A DNA stretch of 32,000 bases from positions 1,230,001 to 1,262,000 of the forward strand of contig NC_013849.1 of NCBI RefSeq assembly GCF_000025505.1, read 5' to 3'. Shown here piece by piece: positions 8,967 to 31,926 of this stretch. A model generated the notes under the pieces. It made no database searches and was not told the origin of the DNA. It was given only the letters and a program-made list of their open reading frames with translations. Every line of letters starts with the position of its first letter. Position 1 is the stretch's first letter. The stretch is from Ferroglobus placidus DSM 10642. GTDB lineage: Archaea > Halobacteriota > Archaeoglobi > Archaeoglobales > Archaeoglobaceae. The translations under genes and the position numbers were made by a program.

Positions 8967-8967
8967 A

Positions 8968-12340: not shown

Positions 12341-12382
12341 ATTTTAGCAATATAATACTAAAACTTTTAAATTTTTGATTCT

Positions 12383-12937: not shown

Positions 12938-12959
12938 CGCAAGCGTAAATCGATTGAGA

Positions 12960-15251: not shown

Positions 15252-15549
15252 TTTCGATCCGGAATTTGTGGAGATGATTTTAAAAAAGGGAAAGACGACG
15301 ACTGTGAGGAGGGGAATTAAGAGATATCCGGTGGGAAAGATAGTTGAGCTCACAGTGAACTACGAACCCTTCGCCAAAGCCAAGATAGAGCGGGTTGTTG
15401 TGAAGAGAGTTTCGGAGCTTACTGACGAAGACGCAAGGAGAGACGGATTCGAAAGCAAAGAGGAGTTGATAAACGCTTTAAAGAAAATTTACGGGAACAT
15501 AAACGAAAACGAGTTCGTTACGATAGTTCACTTTTCGCTGGTGGGGTAA
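15166..15549 (+). CDS. ASCH (PUA-like) domain protein, YqfB-like; start codon uncertain
   Basis: The recognisable domain begins at INFDPEFVEMILKKGKTTTVRRG (ATT 15247, overlapping the tmcA stop). It ends ...LTDEDARRDGFESKEELINALKKIYGNINENEFVTIVHFSLVG. The only upstream ATG is 15166, which gives an 86-nt overlap with tmcA in the +1 frame. Confidence 0.7.
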   Translation: MTLKNPTRKWLKQCKSCGGGSTKEEKRINFDPEFVEMILKKGKTTTVRRGIKRYPVGKIVELTVNYEPFAKAKIERVVVKRVSELTDEDARRDGFESKEELINALKKIYGNINENEFVTIVHFSLVG

Positions 15550-15565
15550 ATCGTTTTTTGAAAAG

Positions 15566-16174: not shown

Positions 16175-16276
16175 GCTTCAAGTTTCTTCGAATGCAAGAT
16201 AATAGTTTTGTTTAGCTTGCATTTTTGCAAGAGAAATTTTATCAAACATATCACTCAAAAATAATCACGATTGTTT

Positions 16277-16969: not shown

Positions 16970-17032
16970 TCTTCGCCGTCTTGCTCAGTTTCGAGAAGCT
17001 GAAATTTTGGTTTCGCAAGCTTTCGCAGATGC

Positions 17033-17050
17033 TGCATATGCACCTACATA
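17033..17050. promoter_or_regulatory. 10-bp perfect palindrome TGCATATGCA overlapping/abutting a TACATA hexamer, upstream of the archaellin promoter
   Basis: Read directly: TGCATATGCA at 17033-17042 and TACATA at 17045-17050, about 90 nt upstream of the putative arlB TATA. Confidence 0.3.
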
Positions 17051-17130
17051 GACAAAAGCAAATTTTGAAGTAGTCACATTTAAGTGTGTATATAACCTGT
17101 TATTCGAAGAACTATATGCTAAAAATCGTT

Positions 17131-17145
17131 TTTTATTTTTAAAGT
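17131..17145 (+). promoter_or_regulatory. arlB TATA-like element
   Basis: TTTTATTTTTAAAGT lies about 35-45 nt upstream of GTG 17180, with SD GGAGGTG at 17166-17172. Confidence 0.35.
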
Positions 17146-17179
17146 AACCTAACTTTTGCCGTGAAGGAGGTGTTGTGGA

Positions 17180-17863
17180 GTGGGTAGGAGAGCTTTGAGG
17201 AAGGACGAGAGGGGAGCGATAGGCATTGAGATACTGATAGTGTTCATAGCGATTGTGCTTGTAGCGGCAGTGAGTGCTGCGGTGCTGATTCAGACCGTCG
17301 GTTATCTACAGCAGAAGGCTACTGCTACCGGAAGAGAAACTACACAAGAAGTTGCAAGTGGTATTAAAGTAGTGAGAGTGTTAGGATATGTTCCGGACCC
17401 TAAGCAGAGTTACAGCAACATAACTAAGCTGGCAATAATCGTTGAAGTGAATACTGGTGGACAGGAGATTGATTTAACGACTACGAGAATAATTCTGTCC
17501 AATGAAACGAAAACGTTAACACTCTACTACGATGATGCAGCGACGAATAAATCATTTACCGATGCATCTACCGGTGTAAGCGATCTATTCGACGATACGC
17601 TGGATGCTTGGGCTTTCTTGGGAAGTACGGAGTTTGGTATAATCGTTCTCCAAGACGAGGACGACTCTCTCTCTGACTCGTATCCTGTATTGAATAAAGG
17701 AGACAAGGTTGCGCTAACGATAAATGTACAATCAGCGTTTGGAACAGGATTCTATCCGAGAGAAGACGTTAGCGGTGAGGTTAGACCTGAACTTGGAGCA
17801 CCAGGAATAATAGAGTTCGTAACTCCACCGGCATACACAACTAAAGTAATAGAACTGCAGTAA
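17180..17863 (+). CDS. arlB: archaellin (FlaB/ArlB)
   Basis: Class III signal peptide plus hydrophobic core: [53 protein letters not shown]. Three N-x-S/T sequons (NIT, NET, NKS). The GTG start has an SD. Confidence 0.9.
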
Positions 17864-17870
17864 ACCTAAA

Positions 17871-17893
17871 TTTTTTCAAAATTTTTTATTTTT
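17871..17893 (+). terminator. oligo-T tracts after arlB (archaeal intrinsic termination/attenuation signal)
   Basis: T6 at 17871-17876, T6 at 17882-17887 and T5 at 17889-17893, with a further T5 at 17907-17911 before the arlC SD GAGGTGG. Confidence 0.45.
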
Positions 17894-17922
17894 ATCATCT
17901 TCAAAATTTTTGAGGTGGTATC

Positions 17923-18408
17923 ATGCTCAAACTCTTTAGAAGAAAGAAGAAGGAAGAAGAGGAGGTGGTGGAGGAAGAAACGGAGGAGGAAGTTGGAGAG
18001 GTTGAGTCGGTTGAAGAGAAAAAGGAGGAGGAAGAAGACCTGATAATGAAGATTAACGAGAGACTCAACGAAATCGAAAACAGGTTGCCGAGGATCGATG
18101 TGTCGATCTCCAACTTGAAGAGGGAGATAGACGGGTTGAAGGAGAACATTCAGAAGCTTGAAGACTCGATAAAGGACATGATGGCTCTTTACGAAGTAGT
18201 CTCGGCTCAGATAAACCCCTTCGTCGGACAGTCGAAGGTCACTGCAATAAGCGTTGAAAGGCTGAACGAGATGGAGAGGAAAATAAACTCGATCGAGGAC
18301 GTCATAAGAGACTTGCGCCTCGATCTGAGGTATTTGTTTAGGAGTTTTGTAAACGTGAGGGAGATCGTTAACGAGGTAATTTACGAAGAGGTGATAAGTC
18401 TTGAATGA
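17923..18408 (+). CDS. arlC: archaellum accessory protein, FlaC-type coiled-coil domain (ArlC-like)
   Basis: 161-aa ORF with an acidic N-terminus. The coiled coil ends in DMMALYEVVSAQINPFV, typical of the FlaC/D/E N-domain. Confidence 0.75.
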   Translation: MLKLFRRKKKEEEEVVEEETEEEVGEVESVEEKKEEEEDLIMKINERLNEIENRLPRIDVSISNLKREIDGLKENIQKLEDSIKDMMALYEVVSAQINPFVGQSKVTAISVERLNEMERKINSIEDVIRDLRLDLRYLFRSFVNVREIVNEVIYEEVISLE

Positions 18409-19234
18409 AGATAATCGAAACATAATAAGGCTTGAAGAGCTCGAAGAGGGGCATAAAAAGTATTTAAGCAATAGCGAGCTTAAAAGCAAGCTTGAAAGTT
18501 ACAAAGGCAGAGTTCCTGCCGTTATTCTCAACGACATATACGAGTTGCTCAAGGGGAAAAAAGTTACTGAGGAGCAGTTGGAGAAAATCGTTTCGAGGAT
18601 AGAGAACAAGTTAAAGCAAACGGGCGGAGAAAACGTTGGAGAGCTCGTAGAAAAAATAGACAGATTGGAAAAGACCCTCTCGACGTTTTTAAAGAAATTC
18701 GAAGAGGAAATTGGGGAAAGAGCGAGAAAAAGGCTTGAAGAGGCTTACGAAGAGTTTTACGAATCTCCTGAGGTGACGGAAGAGAAGAAGGAGGAAGTAG
18801 AAAAAAAGGTGGAAGAAAGCAAAGAGCAGCCGAAGGTCGTGGAAGTGGACGAAGTGATTCCCAAGAGGGCTGTGAAGCTGGCTTCTATTCCGAACACAAC
18901 TAAAGCTATGATGTTCCTTCTCAAGTGGATAGAGTTCATGATAGAGAGGGTTGGCTACGATGGGTTAAACGATCTCCTTGATTACTACGTGGACATCGGC
19001 TGGATTTCGGAGGACGTCATGTTTGACGTGATGAGGTACGCTAAGGGAATAAAGCTCTACCACGAAAAGGCAGACTGGAGACCCATTGGCTATATGAACG
19101 TTCAGGATCACCTTATGTCTTTGCTTTTCATCGAAGCTTTGAGGACGGGAAGGATGAACAGAGACCTTTTGCTCGAAGTGGAGAGGCAGATATACAGGAT
19201 AAAGAAGGAGGTCAGCGAGATCAATGGGATTTAG
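18401..19234 (+). CDS. arlD: archaellum accessory protein FlaD/E (ArlD/E)
   Basis: 277-aa ORF with TTG start 18401 after GAGGTGA. The C-terminal domain is AMMFLLKWIEFMIERVGYDGLNDLLDYYVDIGWISEDVMFDVMRYAKGI, the FlaD/E signature. Confidence 0.8.
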   Translation: MNEDNRNIIRLEELEEGHKKYLSNSELKSKLESYKGRVPAVILNDIYELLKGKKVTEEQLEKIVSRIENKLKQTGGENVGELVEKIDRLEKTLSTFLKKFEEEIGERARKRLEEAYEEFYESPEVTEEKKEEVEKKVEESKEQPKVVEVDEVIPKRAVKLASIPNTTKAMMFLLKWIEFMIERVGYDGLNDLLDYYVDIGWISEDVMFDVMRYAKGIKLYHEKADWRPIGYMNVQDHLMSLLFIEALRTGRMNRDLLLEVERQIYRIKKEVSEINGI

Positions 19235-19658
19235 CACCACTGCAGCTTTCGTCATACTGTTCATTCTCTCTTTAGCGATAGTGGGAGTTGCTTACTCAAC
19301 TTTTTACTCTCAAATCAAGGATTACGTTTACCAACTGAAGGAGGAGAGGGAAAAAGCCGTAGAAAAAGCCAACACTAAGCTGAGCATAGTGTCCATCTCT
19401 GCGGTAGGGTCAGCAACGACCCACAACTTGACGATGGTCGTCGAAAACACCGGCACAACTACGCTTAACGTTAGCAAGTTCGACCTCCTCGTTGACGGTT
19501 CTCTTGTGGACTTCGCTTACAACAGAACGGTACTTTATCCGGAAACCACGGTGGAAATAACGTCTTCAAATCTCGCTGGAGGTACGAACACAACTCATAG
19601 GCTGAAACTCGTAGCAGATAACGGTTATGCGATCTATGCAACATACACGGTGAGCTGA
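19224..19658 (+). CDS. arlF: archaellum protein FlaF (ArlF); the F/G assignment could be swapped
   Basis: 144-aa ORF with an MGFSTTAAFVILFILSLAIVGVAY N-terminal anchor followed by a beta-rich domain, at the expected operon position. Confidence 0.65.
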   Translation: MGFSTTAAFVILFILSLAIVGVAYSTFYSQIKDYVYQLKEEREKAVEKANTKLSIVSISAVGSATTHNLTMVVENTGTTTLNVSKFDLLVDGSLVDFAYNRTVLYPETTVEITSSNLAGGTNTTHRLKLVADNGYAIYATYTVS

Positions 19659-19659
19659 A

Positions 19660-20097
19660 ATGGGATTCGGGGAGGTAGCGTCGCATTTAATTCTGTTCAT
19701 TGCGGCGGTAATAATAGCCTCCTCAGCTTCAGCGATAATGTTCGTTACCGTGCAAAAAATAAGTATAGAAGCTGGTGAGCAGGGGGAAATTTTGAAAAAG
19801 GTAATAGGTACCGATTTTTCCATAATAAACGATCCAGCAAATGTAATTTACAATTCGACCCTCGGTGCTTACGTCATCTACATCAAGAACACGGGGACTG
19901 AGGAAATTCTTCTGACGAATAACACTTTGACCGTTATTCTCAACGGTCAGGTCGTTAATTTTCAATCTGACAGAGTTTTAATAAAGCCCGGGGAAACTGC
20001 TACGATTTACGTTTACTCTCCGCAAATAAACGGTGATGCTAAGCTGATAGTCGTCACGGATGTTGGCGTAAAGAAAACTTTCGAGTTCTCGGGGTGA
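19660..20097 (+). CDS. arlG: archaellum protein FlaG (ArlG); the F/G assignment could be swapped
   Basis: 145-aa ORF with an archaellin-like N-terminal helix ASHLILFIAAVIIASSASAIMF followed by a beta-rich domain. Confidence 0.65.
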   Translation: MGFGEVASHLILFIAAVIIASSASAIMFVTVQKISIEAGEQGEILKKVIGTDFSIINDPANVIYNSTLGAYVIYIKNTGTEEILLTNNTLTVILNGQVVNFQSDRVLIKPGETATIYVYSPQINGDAKLIVVTDVGVKKTFEFSG

Positions 20098-20101
20098 GAG
20101 C

Positions 20102-20797
20102 ATGGTAAATCTTTTCTCGGTTCAAATAGAAAACGACGAGTTCCACAAAAAAATTGGTGGCGGTTTGCCCAAGGGTACTTTCGGCTTAATCATCGGGGAG
20201 AGCGGCAGTGGAAAGAGCGTGGTCTGTCAGAGAATGACGTACGGGTTGCTGAAAAATGACGTCTCCGTTAGCTACGTGTCTTCTCAGCTTACAACTGTAG
20301 ATTTCATAAAGCAAATGGCGAGTTTGGGTTATGGCGTTGAAAAATTCATAATTTCCGGAAAGTTGAAGTTTTTTCCCGTTTACCCCCTCATAAGCGAGGT
20401 AAAGAAGAGGGAGAGGTATATAGAGAAACTAATTTCCGGCAGACACATTTTTGAAAGCAACGTGATAGTTATCGACTCTCTCTCAGCCCTCGTAAAATTC
20501 GATATAAACCCCGATTCAGCCATAGACCTCGTAAGCTTCATCAAGAGAGTCGTTGCGACGGGAAAAGCGGTTGTAGCAACACTCGTTCCCGGGGAGATAG
20601 ACGAATCATCTTTCCTCGAATTAGAGAGTGCAGCCACTTTTGTGGCTGAATGCAGCTTGAGGAAGTTTGGAGCTGATATAAAGAACACCATGACGATCAA
20701 GAAATACAACTTGGCTCAAATGCAGTACCAGAAGCAGATCGCATTCAGAGTCGAGCCGAAGATCGGCTTGGTCGTTGAAATAGCGGCGGTGGCGTAA
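20102..20797 (+). CDS. arlH: archaellum KaiC-like ATPase FlaH (ArlH)
   Basis: 231-aa ORF with Walker A GESGSGKS and Walker B VIVIDSLS, immediately upstream of arlI. Confidence 0.85.
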   Translation: MVNLFSVQIENDEFHKKIGGGLPKGTFGLIIGESGSGKSVVCQRMTYGLLKNDVSVSYVSSQLTTVDFIKQMASLGYGVEKFIISGKLKFFPVYPLISEVKKRERYIEKLISGRHIFESNVIVIDSLSALVKFDINPDSAIDLVSFIKRVVATGKAVVATLVPGEIDESSFLELESAATFVAECSLRKFGADIKNTMTIKKYNLAQMQYQKQIAFRVEPKIGLVVEIAAVA

Positions 20798-22444
20798 ATG
20801 AAGGCGGTAAAATCCGACAGACTCGACGTCGCTTTGAAGAGGAACCCTCACCTAAAAAGATACCTCGACAACTTCAGAAAGAGGGAGGGGACGATTCCGA
20901 ACTTCGTCGTTCAGCTTTCGAGAGATATGAAAGCTTTGCCGAGACCGAACTTGATTTATCCAGTTGGAGATCCCATTTTCATACACATTTGGACGGACAG
21001 GGAGGGAAAGAAGCACTACATCGCCATAGAACCGAGGTTGAAATCCGAGGAGGACGAAGAGAAGTTTAGGGCTGTTATGGACATGATGCTGGAGCTTGCT
21101 CCCTACGAGAAGGAGCCTCAGAGTGAGGAGGAAATGGAGAAGCTGATAGATACTCTCTTCGACAGGGTTACTGAAGTTACTGAAAGTAAGAGACCCTACA
21201 AGAAGAGGAGTCGATTCTCTCTCGGGATAGAAAAGATTCCGTTGACTTACGAGGAAGCGTACACATTTCGTTACTTAATAAAGAGGGAGGTTCTTGGAGT
21301 TGGTCCGTTGGAGCCGCTCGTTAGAGATCCGTACATCGAAGACATCCATGTTATAGGACCGAAGAACACTCACATAGTCCACAAGATCTTCGACATGATG
21401 CCGACGAACATAGAATTCGGCGATGAGCTGAAGATGGCTGAATTCTTGAAGGGACTCGGAGAGAGAATGGGTCGTCCGGTGAGTGAAAAGGAACCGATCG
21501 TCGACGGATCTTTACCGGATGGAAGCAGAATTAATATAATCTATTCTACGGACGTTAGCTTAAAGGGACCCTCCTTCACGATAAGAAAGTTTACGGCAGT
21601 GCCGATCAGCATAACTCAGCTCATAGCTTGGGGGACACTTTCGGCTGAGATAGCCGCTTATCTCTGGCTCTGCTTGGAATACGGGATGAGCATATGGGTG
21701 AGCGGTGAAACGGCAAGTGGAAAAACCACGACGCTTAACGCAATGATTCCGTTTATTAAGCCCGACTCGAAGATCTACACTGCTGAAGACACTCCGGAAG
21801 TCCAAGTCCCTCATCCGGTCTGGCAGCAGCTTAACACGAGAGAAAGGGGCGAAGTGGGTAGAGTTGATCTGTTCGATTTGCTCAGAGCAGCTTTGAGGAG
21901 CAGACCCAACTACATCATAGTCGGAGAGATTAGAGGAAAGGAGGGAGCGATCGCTTTTCAGGCTATGCAGACTGGTCACCCGGTTTTAGCTACCTTTCAC
22001 GCTGGTAGCGTTAAGAAGTTAATTCAACGTTTAACGGGAGATCCGATCAACGTCCCCATAACTTTCATAGACAACCTGAACGTCGTTTTGATTCAGCAGG
22101 CGGTCTACAGAAAGGGACAGTTCCTCAGACGATGTTTGGTCGTTGAGGAGATAGAGGGATATTACGAAGAGATAGGTGGTGTGGTAACGAGATCCGTTTT
22201 CGAGTGGGACAGCGTTACGGACACTCACGTCTTCAGAGGACTTTACAACAGCTACGTTCTGGAAAACAAAATCGCTCAAACGGCTGGATTCGACGATCCG
22301 AGAAAAATCTACGAGGAGATGGAGCTGAGAGCGAGAATTCTCAGGAGGATGGTCGAGGAGAAGATATTCGACTACTACGAGGTTGTGAAGATCATTTGGA
22401 ACTTTTACAAAAAAGGAATGGAAGGTTTGCCCTTCAGGTTGTGA
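20798..22444 (+). CDS. arlI: archaellum motor ATPase FlaI (ArlI), type II/IV secretion ATPase family
   Basis: 548-aa ORF with Walker A SGETASGKTT, Walker B YIIVGEIRG and the His-box region TGHPVLATFHA. Confidence 0.95.
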   Translation: MKAVKSDRLDVALKRNPHLKRYLDNFRKREGTIPNFVVQLSRDMKALPRPNLIYPVGDPIFIHIWTDREGKKHYIAIEPRLKSEEDEEKFRAVMDMMLELAPYEKEPQSEEEMEKLIDTLFDRVTEVTESKRPYKKRSRFSLGIEKIPLTYEEAYTFRYLIKREVLGVGPLEPLVRDPYIEDIHVIGPKNTHIVHKIFDMMPTNIEFGDELKMAEFLKGLGERMGRPVSEKEPIVDGSLPDGSRINIIYSTDVSLKGPSFTIRKFTAVPISITQLIAWGTLSAEIAAYLWLCLEYGMSIWVSGETASGKTTTLNAMIPFIKPDSKIYTAEDTPEVQVPHPVWQQLNTRERGEVGRVDLFDLLRAALRSRPNYIIVGEIRGKEGAIAFQAMQTGHPVLATFHAGSVKKLIQRLTGDPINVPITFIDNLNVVLIQQAVYRKGQFLRRCLVVEEIEGYYEEIGGVVTRSVFEWDSVTDTHVFRGLYNSYVLENKIAQTAGFDDPRKIYEEMELRARILRRMVEEKIFDYYEVVKIIWNFYKKGMEGLPFRL

Positions 22445-22448
22445 GAGC

Positions 22449-24116
22449 ATGAATCTCAGACATCTCGGAATCGATTCGAAGAAGTACGTGAGGTTCATTC
22501 TACTGCCGAGTGTAGTAGCCGCTCTGGTAACGTATTTGTTCGTTCTCGTATACGTTCCGAAGCTCAACCTCGGTTTATTTAGCATTCTCTTTTACACGAT
22601 TCCGATATTCATACTTCTCCCCGGAGTGCTTTATCCGAAAATAATTGAGGTTCGCTTCAAAAACGACATAGAGAACAACATCCACTTTTACATAACCCAT
22701 CTCGGAGTCCTCTCCATCTCCGAAATTGATAGGAAAGAAATGATGAAGATTCTTTCGGAGAGGAAGGAGTACAAATCCTTAGCTGAGGAGACGAGGAAAA
22801 TTTACCTTCTCATGGCTAAGTGGAAGACAAGCTTAGCTCAAGCCTGCAGGTTTATAGCGAAAAGAACTCCAAGTAAGATTTTTGCAGACTTCCTCGACAG
22901 AATGGCTCACGAGATAGATAGCGGAGAGGACTTCAAAGTGTTTATAAAAAGGGAGCAGAAAGTCGTGATGGACGACTTCGCAACGCTTTACACGGGAAAA
23001 CTCTACAGCGTGGACATGTTCAAGGAAATTTACGTCTCCATAATCCTATCCCTAAGTTTCTTCGCGGCTTTCGGAATAATAATGCCCTTCCTGACCGGTT
23101 TGAACGTTATGCTCATAATGTATTTGATCATAATCTTTTTCTTCATAACGGAGATCGGTGTGATAACGTACTTGAAAGCTGTAGCACCTCAGGATCCTCT
23201 CTGGCAGACCTCTGGGGAATACACCGACGTTGACAGAAAGCTGTATAGACTTTTCGCGCTGTCGATGGTAATCTTTCTTGCAGTTTTCACGGCTTTACTC
23301 TTTGCGAACTACGTTTACCACTTGATTGATTTGCCCTTCTCGTTCTTAATGGCTATCTCGCTAACGCCCCTCCTAATTCCCGGGTTTGTTGCTAAGAAGG
23401 AGGAGGGGATGATCAAGGACAAGGACAAGAATGCACCCTCCTTTATAATGAGTCTCGGAGCTTCTGCTTCGGCGAGGGGTGGAAACATCCTTGAGAGTTT
23501 GAAATACCTGACTGCCCATGATTTTGGGGCTTTGACTGAAGACATAAGGGCGCTGTACAAGAGGTTGAAAACGAGGATAAACAAAAGGAGGGCTTGGGAG
23601 AAATTCGCCATCTCAACCAACAGCAACCTGATTTACCGATTTACAGACATGTTCGTCGAAGCGTTAAATCTCGGAACAGATCCGATAGATGCGGCGGAAA
23701 TAATTTCGGAGAACTTTATAGCGATAAACAACCTGAGGGCGAGGAGAGCTCAGTCGGCGAGCTCCTTTGTGGGGATAGCTTATGGAGTGATAATTGGAAT
23801 CGCTTTTGCTCTCTACATATCTTTCGGCGTCGTCGAAGCTATGAACAACCTCTATTCCTCCCTTCAAATAGCGGGAGAAGTTGTGGGAAGTATACTTCAC
23901 ACGGTCCCGGCGGAAGACCTATCCGTACTTTCGAACCTGATAACCCTCCTGCTTATCGCGCATGCGGTAATGGCTACCTTTGCCATAAAAATAATGGACG
24001 GCGGTAGGTTTATGGCTGGATTAATTCATACGGTCGGAATGAGCTGGGTGGCAGCTTTGAGCGGTTACGTAAGTCAAATGGCGATAAAATCTCTGCTCGG
24101 AATGGGCGGAATTTAG
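22449..24116 (+). CDS. arlJ: archaellum platform membrane protein FlaJ (ArlJ)
   Basis: 555-aa polytopic membrane ORF directly after arlI, with two TadC/PilC-like cytoplasmic repeats separated by TM clusters. Confidence 0.9.
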   Translation: MNLRHLGIDSKKYVRFILLPSVVAALVTYLFVLVYVPKLNLGLFSILFYTIPIFILLPGVLYPKIIEVRFKNDIENNIHFYITHLGVLSISEIDRKEMMKILSERKEYKSLAEETRKIYLLMAKWKTSLAQACRFIAKRTPSKIFADFLDRMAHEIDSGEDFKVFIKREQKVVMDDFATLYTGKLYSVDMFKEIYVSIILSLSFFAAFGIIMPFLTGLNVMLIMYLIIIFFFITEIGVITYLKAVAPQDPLWQTSGEYTDVDRKLYRLFALSMVIFLAVFTALLFANYVYHLIDLPFSFLMAISLTPLLIPGFVAKKEEGMIKDKDKNAPSFIMSLGASASARGGNILESLKYLTAHDFGALTEDIRALYKRLKTRINKRRAWEKFAISTNSNLIYRFTDMFVEALNLGTDPIDAAEIISENFIAINNLRARRAQSASSFVGIAYGVIIGIAFALYISFGVVEAMNNLYSSLQIAGEVVGSILHTVPAEDLSVLSNLITLLLIAHAVMATFAIKIMDGGRFMAGLIHTVGMSWVAALSGYVSQMAIKSLLGMGGI

Positions 24117-24214
24117 CGGTAGATAAATTTAATAATATATTCTAAATGATCTTCATCAATTTGTCGAAAATGCTTATATATCATTGTCATGATAATAGTT
24201 ATAGGTGTTCTTCC

Positions 24215-24547
24215 ATGTTCGAGACGCCCCACTTCATCACTATCGACCCCCACATCCTCAGGAGTATAAATAAAAGTGTTTTGAGAAAAAAAGTGCTTTT
24301 TTACCTTTACAGCATTTACCCCAACTATGACTACCTCGCCAACATCTCGAGAAGGGTGAGGAGCGATCCCACAAACGTTCTTGGCTGTTTGAAGGGAATG
24401 GGTAACAGGTACAACGGTTCGAGTTCTTTAATAGAGCTCGGACTCGTTGAAGTTGTAGAGAAGGACGGCTACAAGTACTATCGTATAACGGATCTTGGAA
24501 GGAAAGTAGTGGAATACGTCAGGGAAGTTTATGGTGATTACATATGA
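24215..24547 (+). CDS. small winged-helix DNA-binding protein
   Basis: 110 aa from ATG 24215 (the track ORF starts at 24146). TATA-like CTTATATAT lies about 35 nt upstream. wHTH pattern: YLANISRRVRSDPTNVLGCLKG...LVEVVEKDGYKYYRITDLGRKV. Confidence 0.6.
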   Translation: MFETPHFITIDPHILRSINKSVLRKKVLFYLYSIYPNYDYLANISRRVRSDPTNVLGCLKGMGNRYNGSSSLIELGLVEVVEKDGYKYYRITDLGRKVVEYVREVYGDYI

Positions 24548-25419
24548 TGAAGCTTCTGTACGAGCTTGATTCGATGCTTGACGCTATTTACGGCTACATG
24601 GTTCTGAAGGCATACGTATTCTCGTTGAGATTTAACGGCAACTACGCTAACGGTGATTACGCAGAAAGGTGGAAAAAATATATAGAAAAATTTGATAAAA
24701 AGGAGCTTAACAAAGCTTGCGAGTCGTTAAAGAATTGCAAAGACGGGAAAGTTCTCGATTTGGTTGATGCGATGGATCGCTCTTCGTACTACGCTTTAAT
24801 TCATCCTGAACACCCGAACATAACCCTCGGATTTATAAAGGACGCAGATCTCTGGAATCTCTGGCTTGAATCGGGGATTTACAGATACGCGAGGAGTGCT
24901 ATCGCAGACGTCGTTGGAATTGGCATTGGGGACAAGATCGTTGATTTCGGTTGTGGAAGCGCCTCTCCAAGGTTTTACGCGTCTCTCGTGGGCAGTTCTG
25001 GAGCGTATGTAGGGGTGGATTACTCCAAGCCCCTCCTAAACATAGCGGAAAAGAAGTGCAAGAATGAGAATATAATCGATAGAGTTAAGCTAATTCACGC
25101 GAAAGCGGAATCGAGGATACACTTCAACAAAAGGTACGACATTGCGGTGATCTCCGCTGTAGCTGAGTATTCGTCTCTTAACGGAATTTTAAGGAATGCT
25201 TTAGAGGCTTTGGGGTACGAGGGCAACATCGCTATATTTTCGGAGCTTTTCGTCGATTTGCAGCCGGAAAGGGAAGAGCTTTTTAACCTCTACTATTCTT
25301 TGATCCCCGGCTTCACGTCTTTCCCATCTTTAGGAGAAATAAGAGAATTTTTTGAAAAAACCGGGGTGGACTACTCTATAGAAACCTACGGAAACCACCT
25401 CGTGGTAATTCAGCTTTGA
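24544..25419 (+). CDS. class I SAM-dependent methyltransferase (O-methyltransferase-like, with N-terminal helical domain)
   Basis: 291-aa ORF with SAM motif I KIVDFGCGSASP and an acidic post-I VGVDYS. It shares an ATGA overlap with the wHTH gene. Confidence 0.75.
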   Translation: MMKLLYELDSMLDAIYGYMVLKAYVFSLRFNGNYANGDYAERWKKYIEKFDKKELNKACESLKNCKDGKVLDLVDAMDRSSYYALIHPEHPNITLGFIKDADLWNLWLESGIYRYARSAIADVVGIGIGDKIVDFGCGSASPRFYASLVGSSGAYVGVDYSKPLLNIAEKKCKNENIIDRVKLIHAKAESRIHFNKRYDIAVISAVAEYSSLNGILRNALEALGYEGNIAIFSELFVDLQPEREELFNLYYSLIPGFTSFPSLGEIREFFEKTGVDYSIETYGNHLVVIQL

Positions 25420-25793
25420 AGAACTCTCCTAATCTCTTCAGGTATTTTCCTCCTTTTCCAGCTCTTATCTACGCAGACGCAGGAGATTTTTCCCCTTGCG
25501 ACGACCTCGCTTTTTCTTTTCGCTTCGAATCGAAACGTCACGCTACTCTCTTTCAGCTCCTCGACGAAAACGTCCACGTTTATTTCGTCATCGTACCTCG
25601 TTGGAGCGTCAAACTTGCCCTCAGCGTAAACTATGGGAAACGCGTAATCCTCTTGGACGTTCCTGTAGAAGAGCTCAGGCTTTATTCCCCTTTCTCTCAA
25701 GAACTCGTCCAGTGCCTCTTTAAAGTAGTTGAAGTAAGAAGCAAAATACGTCACGCCGAAGGGATCCGTTTCTCCGAACCTAACCCTCCTCAA
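25410..25793 (-). CDS. hotdog-fold acyl-CoA thioesterase (4HBT/YbgC-like)
   Basis: 127-aa ORF. The N-terminus RVRFGETDPFGVTYFASYFNYFKEA matches the 4HBT thioesterase pattern. Confidence 0.75.
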   Translation of the reverse strand: MRRVRFGETDPFGVTYFASYFNYFKEALDEFLRERGIKPELFYRNVQEDYAFPIVYAEGKFDAPTRYDDEINVDVFVEELKESSVTFRFEAKRKSEVVARGKISCVCVDKSWKRRKIPEEIRRVLQS

Positions 25794-26113
25794 ATCAGAC
25801 CCCTCTTTTTTAGGAAGTCTTCAACGACCGGCAAAACCTTGTCGAGAACTTCTCTCTCTTCTCCGCTGACTCTCAGCATTATCAAAGCGTTTGTATCAGC
25901 TGGAGGTGCGACAGCCATTTCTACGCCATCTATTTTCGCATCCCTAACGGCTTTTGCTATTTCCCCCTTTGCAACTATTTTATCTCCAACTTTGAGGAGG
26001 TAGCCATGATGCTCCGAATTGGGCAGCTCGAAGTGAAGGACTATCGTCGAGTAATTCTTTCCCTTTTCGAGGGTTTGAACCTTTACTTTTCTTCCTTTGT
26101 ACTCGAACTCCAT
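25790..26113 (-). CDS. hypothetical 107-aa protein
   Basis: The ORF shares a 4-nt overlap with the thioesterase gene. I recognise no motif. Confidence 0.6.
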   Translation of the reverse strand: MEFEYKGRKVKVQTLEKGKNYSTIVLHFELPNSEHHGYLLKVGDKIVAKGEIAKAVRDAKIDGVEMAVAPPADTNALIMLRVSGEEREVLDKVLPVVEDFLKKRGLI

Positions 26114-26132: not shown

Positions 26133-26193
26133 CTGGTGAAAAGAGTAATGTTTTTATTCTTCCCTTAAACCATGATTAATAGTGGTGATAAAA

Positions 26194-26628
26194 ATGCCGG
26201 AGAAAATGAGAGTAGTCTTATGTGGCTACGATCCGATGCTCGTGAGGGGATACGTGAAAGCGAAGAATGAAGAAGCGCTGTGGTTCTACCTGCCAAAAGA
26301 GCTTTACGAAGATTACAAGCTGAAACCGGGAGATAAGGTGAAGGGCGTTGTGGAGAAAATATACGCCGGAAAAACTGGAGAAATTGTAGCTGAGCCTAAC
26401 GAAGAGTTCGTCTGGGAAACATCGAGGTTCACGGGAATGGCTGTTGTTGTTGACCATGACTTCATAGCCAAATACAAGCTCACGGCTTGGCACTTCTTAG
26501 AGCTGACGGTAAATGCGATAATTCAGGACGGAGAAGAGAAGGAAGTTTATCCCGGAGAAACCAAGCAGAGGAAGTTCTGGCCGGATGAAAGACTAAAGCT
26601 CCACTACACCCTCGACTACGTTGAGTAA
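26194..26628 (+). CDS. hypothetical 144-aa protein; possible tandem AbrB/SpoVT-like beta-hairpin repeats (weak)
   Basis: ATG 26194 (the track GTG is at 26182). LPKELYEDYKLKPGDKVKGVV and DHDFIAKYKLTAWHFLELTV resemble swapped-hairpin barrel segments. Confidence 0.55.
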   Translation: MPEKMRVVLCGYDPMLVRGYVKAKNEEALWFYLPKELYEDYKLKPGDKVKGVVEKIYAGKTGEIVAEPNEEFVWETSRFTGMAVVVDHDFIAKYKLTAWHFLELTVNAIIQDGEEKEVYPGETKQRKFWPDERLKLHYTLDYVE

Positions 26629-26629
26629 A

Positions 26630-27667
26630 ATGTGGGAAGAAGTTGAAGGTTTCAAACACCTTTTATTTTTGGAAGGTTACGGTTTCTCTTCCAACATTTA
26701 CGCACTCAGACGCTCTTCCATAGCTTTAATAGATGTTGGAAACGATTACACGGCTTTTTTCGAATTTAAAGAGGAGGTTGGAGAGATCTCTGAAATCGAT
26801 CAGATTTTCTTAACTCACTCCCACAACGATCACACTCTCGGCTTGCTTGAGCTCTTTAGAGCTTACAAAGACTTCGATAACGTCGAGATTTTCGTTCACG
26901 AGCTCATGAAGGATGCGATAGAAAAGAGAGCGAAAACGTTTGGGAAGAAAGTGAAGGTTGTAGGGGTTAGAGGTGGGGAGAACATTAATTTTGGCGGAGA
27001 AGAAGCGATAATTCTGAAAACTCCAGGACACACGATAGATTCGCTAAGCCTTTATCTTAAAGAAAAGCAAGCCCTCTTTTCCGGAGATGCGGTCGTTATG
27101 AACCCCGTAATTGACGAAAGTCTCGGAGGGAGACTGATCGACTACGTAATTTCGCTGAGGCATTTAAGGAAGGTGGAAATCTCGGCGATTTTTCCAGGGC
27201 ATGGCTACTACGCTTTGAAAGGTGCGAAGGACATTCTCGATAAGGCTTATTTAAAAGCTATAAGTTTTCTTGATCCGGACAAACCTCTGAAGGATGTCGC
27301 TAAAAAAGCATTAGCCCTTGGAATGGTGGAAGAGGCTGAATACGCTTTGGAAAAGCAGTTGGAGTTCGAGTTCGACGAAGAGGCTCTTTTTGGATTGGCG
27401 TCGATAAAAGCAGATAAGGGGGAGCTTGAAGTAGTTAAGGGGCTGCTTAAAAACTACGACACGTTCGAGACATACCACATTATCGGAGTAGCAGCTATGA
27501 AAGCGGGGAAGTTTGATGAAGCCGCAAATTACCTCAAAAAAGCCCTCGAAATTAAGGAAGATAAGAGTATCAAGCTGCTTCTTGCCACGGCTCTTTATGA
27601 AGATGGGAAAGTCGAAGAAGCGATGAAAATCGAGGAGTTTAAATCCATTTTATCGAAAATCAAATAA
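26630..27667 (+). CDS. metallo-beta-lactamase-fold hydrolase with C-terminal helical-repeat (TPR-like) extension
   Basis: HxHxDH motif THSHNDHTLG, later TPGHT and FPGHG. The C-terminal part of about 110 aa is alanine/leucine-rich helical repeats. Confidence 0.8.
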   Translation: MWEEVEGFKHLLFLEGYGFSSNIYALRRSSIALIDVGNDYTAFFEFKEEVGEISEIDQIFLTHSHNDHTLGLLELFRAYKDFDNVEIFVHELMKDAIEKRAKTFGKKVKVVGVRGGENINFGGEEAIILKTPGHTIDSLSLYLKEKQALFSGDAVVMNPVIDESLGGRLIDYVISLRHLRKVEISAIFPGHGYYALKGAKDILDKAYLKAISFLDPDKPLKDVAKKALALGMVEEAEYALEKQLEFEFDEEALFGLASIKADKGELEVVKGLLKNYDTFETYHIIGVAAMKAGKFDEAANYLKKALEIKEDKSIKLLLATALYEDGKVEEAMKIEEFKSILSKIK

Positions 27668-27738
27668 TAAATATTCAAAATAATTATCCAGTCAACTTAT
27701 CGCCTCGCTTCAACACTCATTAAAAACCATTAAACTTA

Positions 27739-27752
27739 TATTGTTGACAATA
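27739..27752. promoter_or_regulatory. inverted repeat TATTGT-TG-ACAATA in the CoA-transferase operon promoter
   Basis: Read directly. It has 6-bp arms and a 2-bp spacer, and lies 8 nt before ATG 27760 and 32 nt before the SD-led ATG 27784. Confidence 0.3.
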
Positions 27753-27783
27753 ATATATCATGTCAAATCGTGGAGGTGAAGAG

Positions 27784-29298
27784 ATGGGAGAGGAAAAGTA
27801 TGAGGAGAAGTACATCGAACTTGAGATTAACGACATAAAAGACACGCTGTTGCCGAGACCTTGGCCAGTAACCCCTCCGAGGAAGAAAGAAGAAATCTAC
27901 GCTCCCTGGGTAAAGGATCCGAGAGATCCGGATGGAAGCTACGGGAAATTTATCGAGGAAAACATAAGCTGGGAAAAAGCTGAAGGAAAGCCTTGGGCGT
28001 TGGACGGAATAACAGTTTTGGACTGCACGATATGGGGGCTGGCTGGAGCTACAGCCGGAAGCTACTTAGCCGAACTCGGAGCTGAAGTTATTAAAGTTGA
28101 ACCCATTACCGGCGATCCGCAGAGGTATCTGTATCCCTTCGGTAGAGAAGAGTACGCTTTCGAAGACATCTACACCGGCGAAAAAGTCAGCCCGACATTT
28201 ATCCACGAGCAGAGGAACAAATATTCGATAACGCTAAATCTGGAACACCCGAAAGGAAGAGAGCTTTTCAAGAGACTTGCGGCTAAAGCTGATATAGTTC
28301 TTGAGAACTATCCTCCCGGAACTTTCGATGAGTGGGGAATCGGCTACAGACAGCTCAGCAAGATAAACCCGAGGCTGATCTACGTGTGGTTCGGGCAGCT
28401 CGGACAGTGGGGCAGCATGAAGGACAGAACTTCAAAGTACGGACAGTGGATGCTCGATCCCGTTGGAATGGCGGCCAGCGAATACATACACTCTACAGGT
28501 TTTCCGGCTGACTTGCTGCCGAGAGAGAAAGGAGGAAATCCGACGAGATCGGGAGAGTGGATAGCTGATATCGTCGCTGGAGTTTGGGGGACTGTGGCGA
28601 TTCTTGCTGCGTTGTATTACAGAGAAAACGTGAGCAACAGAGGACAGTTCATAGAGGTGGCGGCAGCCGAAGCTCTCATGGAGATTCTCGACTTCAACAT
28701 AAGCTGGTACGCTTTCGACGGAAGCATTAAAGCGAGAATCGGTGGATGGGATCCAAATCTAAACCAGTACGCTTGGAACCCTTGCAGGGACGGTTACATG
28801 ATGATAGGCGGGCAGTCTGACAGACTCTGGTACAGAATACTGCAAGTTATAGCTCAGGAAGATCCGGAGGGAGCGAGGTTGATAGCTGAAGACCCCTTCC
28901 TCAAAGAAATGGCAGCGAGAAACGCTCTTGAAGGGCTTATAAAGACGTACACAGTTACAGCTCACTGGCTTACGAAGAACACGAGAGCAGAAGCAGAGGT
29001 AAAGATGAACGCGAGAGAGGTTGCGGCAGCTCCAGTTTTGATGATAGACGAGGTGGCTGAGTACGAGCACTTCATCTACAGGAGGCACGTCACAGAAGTT
29101 TACGACGAGCACTACGGAAGAGTCCTCATAGCTAATTCGCCTTTGGCTCATCAGCACAAGACTCCCGCGAGAGTTAAATGGGTTGGCAGACCTCTCGGTC
29201 TCGACAACGGAGAAATCTTCGCCAAGTATCTCGGCTTAGGTCCTGAGGAGATTAAGAAGCTCGCGAAGGAAGGAGTTACGACTTGGTATCACGAGTGA
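27784..29298 (+). CDS. family III CoA-transferase (CaiB/BaiF/Frc type), paralog 1
   Basis: [33 protein letters not shown] is the nucleotide-fold signature. The catalytic-Asp region is [24 protein letters not shown]...GQFIEV. ATG 27784 follows GGAGGTGA; the alternative start is 27760. An N-terminal extension of about 70 aa is present. Confidence 0.85.
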
Positions 29299-29309
29299 GG
29301 TGGTTTCGA

Positions 29310-30740
29310 ATGAATGAGGAGATGAAGTGGTATAAACAGGAAGGTAGCTGGAGTTTCGATCCGCCGGTTGATAAAGACCCAGAAACTGGGGAGGATCTTG
29401 AGAAGATCCCCTTCGAAGAGTACTGTAAAAAGATCTTCGATCCTAACAAGGTTTGGGACAAGCCAGAGGCTTTGAAAGGCTGGAGACACATCTCAGCGAC
29501 GATGTACATCCTCTCTCCTCACGTCGGAGCAACTCTCGGTGAATTTGGAGCTGAAGTGATAAAGATCGAATTGCCGAAGCTCGGAGACCCGATGAGGCAC
29601 ACGTCTCCTTTCAACGAGGTTTACCTCTGGCCGGAAACAGATCATAGACCGATGACCGGAACCGGAATGGGTTACCTTCACGCTAACGACAACAAGTACT
29701 TCGTCACACTCGATTATCACGCTCCGGAAGCTAAGGAGATAGTCTACGATCTCGTCAGAATTTCCGACAGCTTAGCGGAATGTTACAGACCGGGAACTTT
29801 CTACAGGTGGGGCATAGGATATCCGCAGCTCAAAGAAGTTAATCCGAGGCTGATCTACATCTGGCTCGGAGGTTTCGGAAACTACGGACCGAGAAGGTAC
29901 GGAGGAAGCTACGACATTCTCGGGCAAGCTGTAGGTGGTTTAGCAGCCATAACTGGCTGGCACGAAGATTTCGGAGGTCATCCAGCGAAGCAGACGAACT
30001 GGCTGATCGACTGGTATTCCGGACTGATCGGTGTCATTGGCGTTTTAGCTGCAGCTCACTACAGGAGAAAGACCGGCGAAGGAACTTTCATCGACCTCAG
30101 CCAGATAAGTTGCTCCACAAGAGCTACCGGCTACGCTTTCCCGCTTTACGGAAGATTTGGTGTCGTGAGGCAAAGGTGGGGTAACTGGGACACTCTACTT
30201 TGCGTCCACGGAGTCATAATGGTTGGAAAGACCGACGATCCGGAGCATCCCAACCCGCAGATAAGTGAAGAAAGCAGATATGTCTTCGTTTCAGCCTTCC
30301 AAGACGAGGACTTCAGAGAACTCTGCTACGTCATCGGCAGACCGGATCTCTGGGAGAAGTACTGCAGCTTAAAGGAGAGGTTGAAGCCTGAAGCCCAGAT
30401 AGAAATTTACAGGGCTCTCGAGGAGTGGGCGGCTGACAAGTCGAGGAGCGAAGTTGTGGAGATTCTCAACAACGCTGGCTTGATAGCTGTGCCGGTCTTC
30501 TCGGCTAAAGACGTTTACGAGTGCGACCACTACTGGGAGAGAGGAACGCTCAGATGGGTAGAAGATCCGATATTCGGTCACGTGCTCGTTCACGGAGCTA
30601 CAGTAAAGATGAGCGAAACTCCGCCGAGGATAAAGTGGATCTGGAGACCGATTGGAGCGGACAACATCAGAATCTACCACGAACTGCTCGGCTATCCGCT
30701 GAGCAAGCTGAAGGAGTTGTGGGAGAAGGGAGTAATCTGA
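29310..30740 (+). CDS. family III CoA-transferase, paralog 2
   Basis: [67 protein letters not shown] 29310 follows GAGGTGG; the track start is 29283. Confidence 0.85.
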
Positions 30741-30753
30741 GGGGGTGGTTTAG

Positions 30754-31254
30754 TTGGTTTATTACTGGGAGCACGAATGCGGATGGGTGAACTACCTCGA
30801 CCCCTACTACTTCTGGAACTGGGAAGGGAAGGTAAAGTGTGCCGGCTGCGACAAGGTGGCTTACTTCAAATTCGTCAACGGAGAACTGCTCGAATACAGA
30901 GAGGTTGACGAAGAACCAGACATCCTCCCGCTTTACGCTGACAATCCGAATGAGGGATACATTTCGATAAAAGTCGGAACTGAAGGAAAAACGAGACCTT
31001 TCAGAGGGCTGATGAGAGATCCGAAGACTTACACCGGAGAAGCGAGAACGAGAACTGAGAACTTTGCCGGAAAGTTCATAAGAGCAATGCCCAACCAGCC
31101 GAAGAAGGCTGGATTTGCGGAAAGCAGAAGGTTCGCGTGGATCGACAGAACGAAAAGCATCGAAGTCTGGGGCAAGGATAAGTATCCCGGCAAACCGGTT
31201 TACGGCAAGTTTAAGGTCGGTGAAGTTGCTGAAGAAGAGCATGTGGAGGAGTGA
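30754..31254 (+). CDS. hypothetical 166-aa protein with N-terminal H-x-C...C-x-x-C zinc-ribbon-like motif
   Basis: TTG start 5 nt after GGGGGTGG. The motif is WEHECGWVNYLDPYYFWNWEGKVKCAGCDK. The C-terminal half is basic and the tail acidic. Confidence 0.65.
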   Translation: MVYYWEHECGWVNYLDPYYFWNWEGKVKCAGCDKVAYFKFVNGELLEYREVDEEPDILPLYADNPNEGYISIKVGTEGKTRPFRGLMRDPKTYTGEARTRTENFAGKFIRAMPNQPKKAGFAESRRFAWIDRTKSIEVWGKDKYPGKPVYGKFKVGEVAEEEHVEE

Positions 31255-31259
31255 TAACC

Positions 31260-31520
31260 ATGAGCTCTCACGTCGAATTTAGCTTTCCGAAAGATGCTGG
31301 TCCAAAGCCAGCTGTTTGGACGAAAGAGCAGGAGGAGTTCGTCAAGCAGTTCCCGCACATATGCAAGGAATGCAAATGGCTCAAACCGATAATTCCCAAC
31401 ACCAAGTACCCTCCCGCCGATCTGGTAGGCTACTGCAAGATTATACACTGGCCCTTCTACTGGTGCGTAAGCAAGTACACTATAGTTAAGAAGTGCAAGT
31501 GGTTTGAAAAGAGGGAATAG
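31260..31520 (+). CDS. hypothetical 86-aa Cys-rich protein
   Basis: ATG 31260 follows GGAGGAGTGA. Five Cys are present: CKEC, then GYCK, WCV and KCKW. Confidence 0.6.
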   Translation: MSSHVEFSFPKDAGPKPAVWTKEQEEFVKQFPHICKECKWLKPIIPNTKYPPADLVGYCKIIHWPFYWCVSKYTIVKKCKWFEKRE

Positions 31521-31554
31521 CTTTAAATCTACCAAAATTTTTAACATTTTTTAA

Positions 31555-31683
31555 TGAAGTGCATTTACGATCCAGCGGTCGATTGCATCTACGAAGATTT
31601 CAGCGAGGAAAGGTGTAGGAGCTGTCCGATTTACGAGGCGATTGTTGAGGGAGCTAAGGGGTGTGGTAGCGTTGAGTTCTGAA
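31555..31683 (+). CDS. possible 42-aa Cys-rich micro-protein (not in the ORF track)
   Basis: Hand translation MKCIYDPAVDCIYEDFSEERCRSCPIYEAIVEGAKGCGSVEF*. It has 5 Cys including CxxC but no obvious SD. Confidence 0.3.
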
Positions 31684-31926
31684 ATTAATAGGGCTAAGGA
31701 GCTCGTTGAGAGGTGGTTTAAAAGCTACGCGGAGAAAGCTGACGAAACTGCGGTGGAGCTTTTCTCAGACGACATCGAAGTTATCGATAGCTGGGCGAAT
31801 TCTATGCTGATGGCCGGTAGAATAAGTAACGAAGAGTACTGGGATCTTATCACCTTTTGCGAAGAAAAGCTCGAAGAACTTAAAAGGTTAGCCGGAGTTG
31901 AAAGCTTGGACATGCGTTTCAAGTAG
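31663..31926 (+). CDS. hypothetical helical protein of about 87 aa
   Basis: GTG 31663 lies 7 nt after GAGGGAG (the track TTG is at 31642). The sequence is predicted helical and I recognise no motif. Confidence 0.5.
   Translation: MVALSSEINRAKELVERWFKSYAEKADETAVELFSDDIEVIDSWANSMLMAGRISNEEYWDLITFCEEKLEELKRLAGVESLDMRFK

Follow-up and report, generated by a model that had tools for sequence, protein, structure and literature searches.

Tandem family-III CoA-transferase genes and their orphan small-protein neighbors in Ferroglobus placidus: a gene module of anaerobes that may encode a multi-subunit, metal-containing complex

What might be made by a pair of tandem coenzyme A (CoA)-transferase genes that is followed, with hardly any spacing, by a train of small and mostly cysteine-rich proteins? 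The question is raised by a locus of the archaeon Ferroglobus placidus DSM 10642, as found within a stretch of 32,000 nucleotides (nt) of contig NC_013849.1 that here, at its full length, is called the window. An original prediction, one made from the letters of the window without database searches, recognized two family-III CoA-transferase paralogs, designated here as A and B, along with four small open reading frames (ORFs), designated S1 to S4, and suggested that together these might constitute a heteromeric transferase possessing novel metal-binding accessory subunits. The computational analysis described here, with ORF coordinates taken from independent gene calls on identical public contigs, finds that observation to be essentially right, with corrections to its boundaries, and the interpretation to be partly supported. 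That is, a heteromeric transferase with novel metal-binding accessory subunits fits the comparative evidence, but two upstream genes were missed, i.e., those of an orphan protein, u148, and of a protein, MBL-TPR, that combines a metallo-beta-lactamase (MBL) domain with TPR families.

The answer that we prefer, and to which we lend moderate confidence, is that the locus is a horizontally mobile module of anaerobes, encoding a multi-subunit family-III CoA-transferase complex which probably contains metal and which would activate a monocarboxylic acid. Physical association among the products, binding of metal, direction of reaction, and nature of the substrate are in each case what we infer. A dedicated multi-subunit complex is favored given the invariant A-B-S1-S2 gene order, the Cys and His patterns of the small proteins, the tail that is carried by S1, and the occurrence of gene fusions.

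The two transferases are indeed members of family III, and both retain the catalytic-Asp region, as had been proposed. Each matches PF02515 over nearly the whole of that profile (A with E 6.2e-79, profile positions 1-363 of 366; B with E about 1e-77, i.e., 1e-77 to 1.2e-76, profile positions 1-365 of 366), and the Asp of ADIVAG in A as well as that of LIDWYSG in B falls, in alignments, on the catalytic Asp of family-III enzymes with solved structures (4ed9, SUGCT). The N-terminal extensions that had been pointed out are real as well, since the PF02515 domain starts at residue 73 in A and at residue 55 in B, counting from corrected starts, which corresponds to extensions of approximately 72 and 55 amino acids (aa), respectively. 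A and B are 31% identical (E 2e-58), a likeness to each other that exceeds that of either to any characterized enzyme. Relative to the orthologs of Desulfacinum infernum, A is 58% identical and B is 60% identical, and public records label both generically, as CaiB/BaiF family proteins. Presumably A and B form an interlocked dimer with CoA-transfer activity, as is the case in family III.

The two subunits are not equally constant. The catalytic Asp of B is found in 113 of 113 orthologs, versus 91 of 103 for that of A, with Ser instead present in nine of the latter, all from clade I (a second, divergent clade II is described below). This is at the column of window residue D270, as numbered, like the other invariant residues of A and B, along the longest ORFs. 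With Asp invariant in B but Ser substituting in those nine clade-I A sequences, B would be the constant and likely the catalytic subunit, and the occurrence of Ser suggests that some lineages can do without the active site of A or have given it another purpose. B possesses additional invariant residues, which are C48 (located in the extension), H106, H146, H309, C348, and H416, and in A the residue C342 is invariant.

The Cys patterns that the original prediction had described for S1, S2, and S3 all were found. In S1 the pattern H-x-C...C-x-x-C takes the form HEC...CAGC, with C9, C29, and C32 invariant and accompanied by an upstream Cys or His, an arrangement that probably is zinc-ribbon-like, with binding of metal presumed from it. 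In an AlphaFold2 (AF2) model, residues 1-80 of S1 are confidently placed and beta-rich, and residues 84-166 have a predicted local distance difference test score (pLDDT) of <50. Despite this low pLDDT, the C-terminal half carries many invariant residues. The tail, that is, is predicted to be disordered when alone and would become ordered only on a partner. A fold search with the S1 model returned no match below E = 1; matches to SCP2 domains at E 2-3 were scattered and were judged to be noise. Within 5.8 billion proteins, S1 is represented by 14 close clusters, and an exhaustive profile search of 1.84 billion representatives returned 56 clusters (at 50% identity) of S1-like proteins, some of them shorter and divergent.

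The five Cys of S2, including CKEC, are part of a longer pattern, H-x-C-x2-C-x20-C-x3-H-x5-C-x9-C, in which H33, C35, C38, C59, and H63 are invariant and C69 and C79 are nearly so. S2 probably binds Zn or Fe, as judged from these residues; Pfam matches of the S2 family are limited to faint, rubredoxin-like ones (PknG-rubredoxin). The five Cys of S3, including CRSC, i.e., C3, C11, C21, C24, and C37, show no variation among 12 sequences. When all reading frames were searched with a profile, S3 was placed at 15 loci, all of them Archaeoglobales and none bacterial, and a bacterial counterpart of S3 was rejected on that basis. S4 is helical, as predicted, though 84 aa rather than approximately 87 aa in length, and by clustering it belongs to one family with an approximately 90-100-aa protein that in bacteria lies between S2 and u148. 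Its alignment has one invariant Trp and one nearly invariant Cys. The original prediction had counted the four small proteins as equivalent. All four are conserved, but S3 is specific to the Archaeoglobales lineage.

Purifying selection on every small ORF is strong. Ratios of nonsynonymous to synonymous substitution rates (dN/dS), determined versus the nearest usable relative and with synonymous sites saturated, are 0.04 for S1, 0.02 for S2, 0.09-0.14 for S3, 0.19-0.29 for S4, and 0.02 for u148. As the small ORFs thus are both kept in related genomes and under purifying selection (0.02-0.29 overall), nothing was found of what the original prediction had listed as counting against it. None of the small proteins, u148 included, has a usable Pfam or NCBIfam match, whether scanned singly or as families, and the family profiles of S1, S2, S4, and u148 as run against all PDB sequences gave chance-level matches only.

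The u148 protein is predicted to be a swapped-hairpin beta-barrel, like that of AbrB or PhS018. Its AF2 model has a pLDDT of 92, and the best fold match of that model is 2glw, PhS018 (probability 0.97, with, however, a weak E of 0.11 and TM scores of 0.43 by query and 0.63 by target). A MazE match in Pfam is seen with one of 24 u148 members and is weak (E 0.13). Between archaea and bacteria, u148 proteins are 48-84% identical, with Cys, Asp, and His residues that are invariant. The MBL-TPR protein matches PF00753 (E 1.5e-20), has TPR families at its C-terminus, and retains an intact HxHxDH motif (as HSHNDH). It is most closely related to LACTB2 and glyoxalase II/GloB, with a GloB score of 50 bits versus a cut-off of 201.

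How widely is this collection of genes found, and how constantly is it kept together? A pattern scan for S1 that covered one genome per species detected it in the genomes of 141 species. The archaeal hosts include metagenome-assembled genomes (MAGs) of Ferroglobus, Geoglobus, and Archaeoglobus, along with Methanocellales. Bacterial hosts include Aquificota, Thermosulfidibacter, Desulfacinum infernum, D. hydrothermale, Desulfosoma, Desulfobacterota, Bacillota, Syntrophobacterales, Desulfobacterales, Desulfobaccales, Desulfovirgula, Ammonifex, Actinomycetota, and Anaerolineales. Eighty-eight loci were analyzed, i.e., 80 from the species scan, seven from contig look-ups, and the window itself. 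All 88 have S1, with matches seen as well to S2 (86), B (86), u148 (82), A (76, the remainder cut by contig ends), and MBL-TPR (65). The order A-B-S1-S2 is kept throughout this set, S1 always following the transferase pair. In bacteria the full order is A-B-S1-S2-X-u148-MBLTPR, where X is the S4 family and MBL-TPR is 3' of u148. In Archaeoglobales, u148 and MBL-TPR are shifted upstream, i.e., to 5' of the transferases, where they stand behind a conserved promoter of their own.

A shorter and divergent version of S1 marks clade II. Contigs with this version again have two PF02515 genes directly 5' of it, and a metagenome scan for the clade returned 339 matches. Gene order in this clade is A-B-S1-like-S2-like, followed by p110/127, p123, and an AMP-forming ligase. 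Its third and fourth small proteins were considered as divergent versions of S4 and u148, which was not supported, and clade II is also without u148 and MBL-TPR, with one exception in 84 loci. As clade II thus keeps the A-B-S1-S2 order in combination with other small proteins, the core of the module would be A, B, S1, and S2. From this distribution S4, u148, and MBL-TPR are read as usual but dispensable components, and S3 as an addition that is specific to Archaeoglobales. Fusions as read from the gene sequences tie small proteins together: S4 and p123 are fused into one 237-aa protein in Methanocellales, and S2-like and p123 are a single protein on one clade-II contig.

One Archaeoglobaceae MAG, which is the assembly also of locus L021, carries in addition a second, paralogous set (L088, 6528-12706). 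This set consists of two transferases, S1-like, S2-like, and two MBL-TPR genes. It is surrounded by genes for acyl-CoA dehydrogenases, a crotonase, a 3-hydroxyacyl-CoA dehydrogenase, a thiolase, an AbfD/HpaB-like protein, and an AcetylCoA_hyd_C transferase.

Genes near the module offer indications of the pathway that it might serve. An AMP-forming ligase occurs at 62 of the 84 clade-II loci and at nine clade-I loci, the latter including Archaeoglobales, and is orthologous between the two clades (56% identity). It is nearest to anthranilate- and benzoate-CoA ligases, its benz_CoA_lig scores of 326-337 bits being under that model's cut-off of 375. A ligase-GNAT fusion is present in two loci, and a targeted search found free GNAT in 16 loci. 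The hotdog thioesterase of the window matches PF13279 and TIGR00051/TIGR02799, and homologs of it (E ~1e-33) are found approximately 4 kb from the transferase pair at 26 clade-II metagenome loci and 12 clade-I loci. Next to it, u107 is without a match in Pfam or NCBIfam and is found at 14 loci, the window and copies counted, 13 of which are Archaeoglobales. A U32 protein that is akin to UbiU and TrhP recurs nearby, at a minority of clade-I loci. A sigma-54/PAS activator is upstream in 30 bacterial loci, with a CheY-like protein downstream, and adjoining transporters include an ABC system with a Peripla_BP_5/6-type periplasmic-binding protein and members of the acetate-uptake transporter family (AceTr). 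On a Thermodesulfobacterium-like contig (L177), an MFS transporter scores over the curated cut-off for the SfMCT L-lactate transporter. Taken as gene content, these neighbors suggest a pathway that is inducible and that handles an imported monocarboxylic acid as its CoA ester. Several of the host lineages are chemolithoautotrophs, and the module thus is not simply an aromatic-degradation trait.

Under the reading of the locus as an activating, multi-subunit transferase, events might proceed as follows. The core would be an A/B heterodimer, with the indispensable catalytic Asp residing in B. S1 and S2 would be obligate partners, with S1 contributing a zinc ribbon and a long tail, probably one that winds around the large subunits. 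This complex would move CoA from a donor thioester to a monocarboxylic acid, one that possibly is aryl- or 2-hydroxy-substituted. The pathway would be inducible, with the benzoate-type AMP-forming ligase priming the pool of CoA esters. CoA would be released by the hotdog thioesterase, the MBL hydrolase, or both, and the transferase would serve to recycle CoA.

A number of points weigh against this reading. To our knowledge, the known family-III enzymes need neither metal nor extra subunits. Binding of the small proteins to the transferase is something that we infer from comparative data. Clade II has unrelated small proteins in place of S4 and u148, and u148 and MBL-TPR are missing also from the two Methanocellales loci. 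In Archaeoglobales, u148 and MBL-TPR are under their own promoter, and the same may be true of S3 and S4. Clues to substrate, furthermore, diverge, pointing variously to an aromatic acid, to lactate or another 2-hydroxy acid, to acetate, and to an alcohol or aldehyde.

Comparison with known systems provides partial likenesses. With BbsEF and SmtAB, A and B have in common that the genes are tandem, paralogous, and of PF02515, that the products presumably form an interlocked heterodimer, and that the nucleophile is an aspartate. BbsE/BbsF also are among the nearest solved structures (9fn0), remote ones nonetheless (E 1e-10 to 5e-28). Differing, however, are the 55-72-aa N-terminal extensions of A and B, and we know of no counterpart of S1 or S2 in Bbs or Smt operons; nor do genes of fumarate addition or of the 3-hydroxypropionate bi-cycle occur near the module. 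Frc/YfdW and SUGCT provide the best profile and structure matches and have the Asp motif in common with A and B, but they are homodimers of ~400-430 aa that are without accessory subunits, and the window's proteins score only ~1/4-1/3 of the relevant cut-offs. A family-III transferase found together with an AMP-forming ligase, here with a thioesterase near as well, is reminiscent instead of the transferase/ligase energy-saving loops of CaiB/CaiC (carnitine), FldA/FldL (phenyllactate), and CarA/CarB (caffeate). The partners in those loops, i.e., crotonase, acyl-CoA dehydrogenase/Etf, or radical dehydratase plus activator, are outside of the conserved core here, their place being taken by four orphan small proteins and the MBL-TPR hydrolase.

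For the small proteins, the original prediction had invoked a likeness to the small Cys-rich subunits of radical enzymes. As there is no glycyl-radical enzyme or activase in the module, the analogy to such subunits (BssB/C, HpdC type) fails. A closer parallel, as a concept, is with the DUF35 zinc-ribbon/OB-fold protein, which is the scaffold of the archaeal thiolase/HMG-CoA synthase complex, and likewise with BbsA: In each case a small zinc-ribbon protein holds together enzymes that convert CoA esters. S1 and S2 differ from these in having no DUF35 match in Pfam (S1 scanned to E 0.1), and S1 is without a significant fold neighbor. Neither these scaffolds nor the transferase/ligase loops are homologous to the small proteins of the module. 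As compared with AbrB, MazE, and PhS018, u148 differs in being, by its model, one chain that comprises two half-barrels and additional elements and in belonging to a metabolic operon, and we know of no precedent among AbrB-type regulators for its invariant Cys, Asp, and His residues. Considered as well, and set aside, was the 'Magic' benzene-activation cluster of strain ORM2, in which poorly annotated proteins come after a class-III transferase pair but the partners differ (PaaZ/MaoC-like). Full-text literature searches found no description of the module, nor of S1, S2, S4, or u148, and the locus goes unmentioned in the genome papers of F. placidus and Geoglobus ahangari.

How else, then, might the locus be explained? 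One could suppose that A and B simply are a characterized family-III system, be that BbsEF for benzylsuccinate, SmtAB/Mct for malate/mesaconate, Frc/YfdW/YfdE for formyl-CoA/oxalate, SUGCT for succinate-hydroxymethylglutarate, or CaiB for carnitine, since they have a Pfam family in common with these enzymes and find among them their best NCBIfam and PDB matches. This we would hardly credit. Against seven characterized NCBIfam equivalog models, including those for succinate-glutarate, oxalate, and carnitine transferases and for mesaconyl-CoA isomerase, A and B score 24-165 bits versus cut-offs of 413-750, with the best score, 165 bits, to be read against a cut-off of 700, and with the models for succinyl-CoA:mesaconate and formyl-CoA transferases on top; PDB relatives (SUGCT, Frc-like, BbsF, YfdE) reach E 1e-28 to 1e-32 at best; the mutual likeness of A and B is above that to any of these enzymes; and no bss/bbs genes, no gene for oxalyl-CoA decarboxylase, and no genes of the 3-hydroxypropionate or methylaspartate cycles are present in the neighborhoods examined. 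Somewhat less improbable, though still unlikely, is that the small proteins and MBL-TPR are factors of assembly, maturation, or regulation, such as chaperones, a DNA binder like AbrB, or proteins that deliver metal, that are co-regulated with an otherwise ordinary heterodimeric transferase, rather than being stoichiometric subunits of it. In many assembly factors, contacts between proteins are made through TPR domains, the predicted AbrB/MazE-like fold of u148 is one that is known from DNA-binding regulators, u148 and MBL-TPR have their separate promoter in Archaeoglobales, and the accessory set differs among lineages. S1 and S2, however, are present invariably and come straight after B, in translational coupling with it; in bacteria, the operon already is served by a sigma-54 activator of its own; and u148, as a predicted single-chain pseudo-dimeric barrel that retains ~50% or more identity across domains, is not what one would usually expect of a regulator that is carried along with differing promoters.

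The main rival to an activating transferase is a CoA-transferase-coupled transforming enzyme, one comparable to FldABC, in which the transferase is bound into a larger enzyme complex, or to DddD. S1, S2, S4, and u148, with or without MBL or U32, would then be a metal-dependent catalytic or electron-transfer module that acts upon the bound CoA ester. We view this as a serious although less probable alternative. It would explain a core that lacks any classical acyl-CoA-modifying enzyme yet includes four to five orphan proteins with invariant Cys and His, and a triad of ligase, transferase, and thioesterase is typical of the modification of acids as CoA esters followed by their release, as is seen with Cai, Fld, Car, and 4-chlorobenzoate pathways. 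The nearby U32 protein, too, is akin to the prephenate-dependent anaerobic hydroxylases UbiU and TrhP, but is near the module in only a minority of clade-I loci, and the MBL domain is nearest to glyoxalase II, which is a 2-hydroxyacyl-thioester hydrolase, but MBL-TPR along with u148 is absent from the two Methanocellales loci and, save for the one exception, from clade II. The small proteins, moreover, are very small and without a recognizable catalytic fold. A more specific version, which we put forward as speculative and on balance doubtful, is that the complex couples CoA transfer mechanically to a second reaction on the bound acyl group and is thereby a new kind of metalloenzyme. For that second reaction one might think of an aromatic or 2-hydroxy monocarboxylate being modified or cleaved without oxygen, with the metal centre supplied by the orphan small proteins. 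Were that the case, then a widespread step in anaerobic carbon metabolism, found from hyperthermophilic archaea to sediment bacteria, would have been overlooked.

Whether as activating transferase or as coupled enzyme, the module represents a distinct transferase subfamily that is locked to at least two, and usually four or five, orphan protein families across two domains of life, as seen in hundreds of genomes and contigs from metagenomes. It defines several new protein families, each with a genomic handle, and possibly a new enzyme architecture. It marks, in addition, an evidently important inducible pathway of sulfate reducers, iron reducers, Methanocellales, and syntrophs, which are groups that govern how carbon is turned over in anoxic sediments, aquifers, and hydrothermal systems. 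Some hosts are available in culture (F. placidus, Desulfacinum infernum, D. hydrothermale, and Desulfovirgula thermocuniculi), and the operon is compact and fit for co-expression.

The features of the locus are collected in Table 1.

Table 1. Coordinates of the module and of its immediate upstream neighbors, as positions within the window
Feature	Position	Strand	Description
Hotdog thioesterase (127 aa)	25410..25793	(-)	4HBT/YbgC-type acyl-CoA; divergent from module
u107 (107 aa)	25790..26113	(-)	orphan, same orientation as thioesterase
BRE/TATA promoter-like element before u148	26139..26158	(+)	nine-locus Archaeoglobales alignment
u148 (144 aa)	26194..26628	(+)	orphan, predicted beta-barrel
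MBL-TPR protein (345 aa)	26630..27667	(+)	PF00753 + TPR
BRE/TATA promoter of transferase operon	27724..27741	(+)	nine-locus Archaeoglobales alignment
TATTGTTGACAATA inverted repeat TATTGT-TG-ACAATA	27739..27752	(.)	overlaps TATA box
CoA-transferase A (504 aa)	27784..29298	(+)	PF02515
CoA-transferase B (476 aa)	29310..30740	(+)	PF02515
S1 (166 aa)	30754..31254	(+)	probably zinc-ribbon-like domain + tail
S2 (86 aa)	31260..31520	(+)	Cys/His-rich
T-rich S2-S3 spacer	31521..31553	(+)	TTTAAAT element + T-runs
S3 (42 aa)	31554..31682	(+)	five invariant Cys
S4 (84 aa, TTG start)	31672..31926	(+)	helical

The module does not continue to the window edge, as had been supposed, but instead ends at 31926, where a convergent Pus10 gene overlaps the final 8 nt of S4 and is followed by unrelated genes. 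In the other direction, the conserved module begins upstream of 27739, with u148 and then the MBL-TPR gene. Spacing from A through S4 is close or overlapping, as described originally, with an overlap of 11 nt between S3 and S4, and the two similar ribosome-binding contexts at gene junctions, TGAGGTGGTTTCGAATG and TGAGGGGGTGGTTTAGTTG, are both present. A starts with the ATG at 27784 rather than at 27760, a Shine-Dalgarno sequence, GGAGGTGA, being kept before that ATG throughout Archaeoglobales; the start of B is the ATG at 29310. Among other genomes, the closest hit comes from a MAG of Ferroglobus and is 94% identical.

When nine loci of Archaeoglobales are aligned, an order-wide consensus emerges for the transferase-operon promoter, AAACCrTTAAG-TTTTATA, consisting of a transcription factor B recognition element (BRE) and TATA box. 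For the promoter-like element of u148, which has an A-rich BRE and a TATA box, the consensus is AAAA.AGAAAA..TTAAATA, which is followed by a GGTGA Shine-Dalgarno sequence and ATG. The inverted repeat that had been noticed in the transferase promoter is present, at 27739-27752, but is conserved only in Ferroglobus. That is, it is kept in the Ferroglobus MAG (L008) and not in the aligned loci of Geoglobus, Archaeoglobus, or an unclassified archaeal MAG, and as a conserved operator it consequently was rejected. The spacer between S2 and S3 is T-rich, with T5-T7 runs, in eight of eight aligned Archaeoglobales loci (the window plus loci among L009-L023), and it contains a TTTAA[AT] element approximately 30 nt before the ATG of S3. 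Judging from these letters, the spacer may be an internal terminator, an attenuator, or the promoter of a leaderless S3-S4 transcript. As it could either terminate or start a transcript, co-transcription of all six genes is not assured.

Several individual loci display additional genes in association with the module. On the Thermodesulfobacterium-like contig, positions 8519-21407 constitute the longest tightly spaced same-strand gene run among the loci, consisting of A, B, S1, S2, S4, u148, MBL-TPR, the AMP ligase, a second MBL, U32, an aldehyde dehydrogenase, the SfMCT-type transporter, and an Fe-ADH, with AMP-forming and ADP-forming acyl-CoA synthetases just 5' of this run. In a Hydrothermarchaeota MAG (L176, 15088-21395), the module is flanked by a corrinoid methyltransferase set and by an HGD-D family protein. 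This corrinoid set, seen at that one locus only, comprises two URO-D proteins, a B12-binding protein, and a RACo activator, and it resembles O-demethylase systems for methoxylated aromatics. In one Aquificales MAG (L079, 9544-10368), a radical-SAM gene of 274 aa lies between u148 and MBL-TPR. As a general module member this gene was rejected, being found at that locus and no other. A CxxCxxCC protein (PF03692, putatively Zn/Fe-chelating) adjoins the module in a Methanocellales MAG (L047, 3825-4403) and in Desulfobacteraceae Eth-SRB2 (L178, 14883-15521) and is, by its family, a candidate for a further metal-handling accessory.

Elsewhere in the window, a gene for a UbiE/class-I methyltransferase (290 aa) is found at 24544-25419, directly 5' of the thioesterase/u107 pair. 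Upstream of this, at 16271-24547, is an ordinary-looking and unrelated archaellum/type-IV-pilus-like operon, which includes a T2SSE ATPase (548 aa), a T2SSF/FlaJ-like membrane protein (555 aa), and an EarA-family regulator (24146-24547). Positions 11001-13000 have a G+C of 0.36 versus ~0.45 in the rest of the window.

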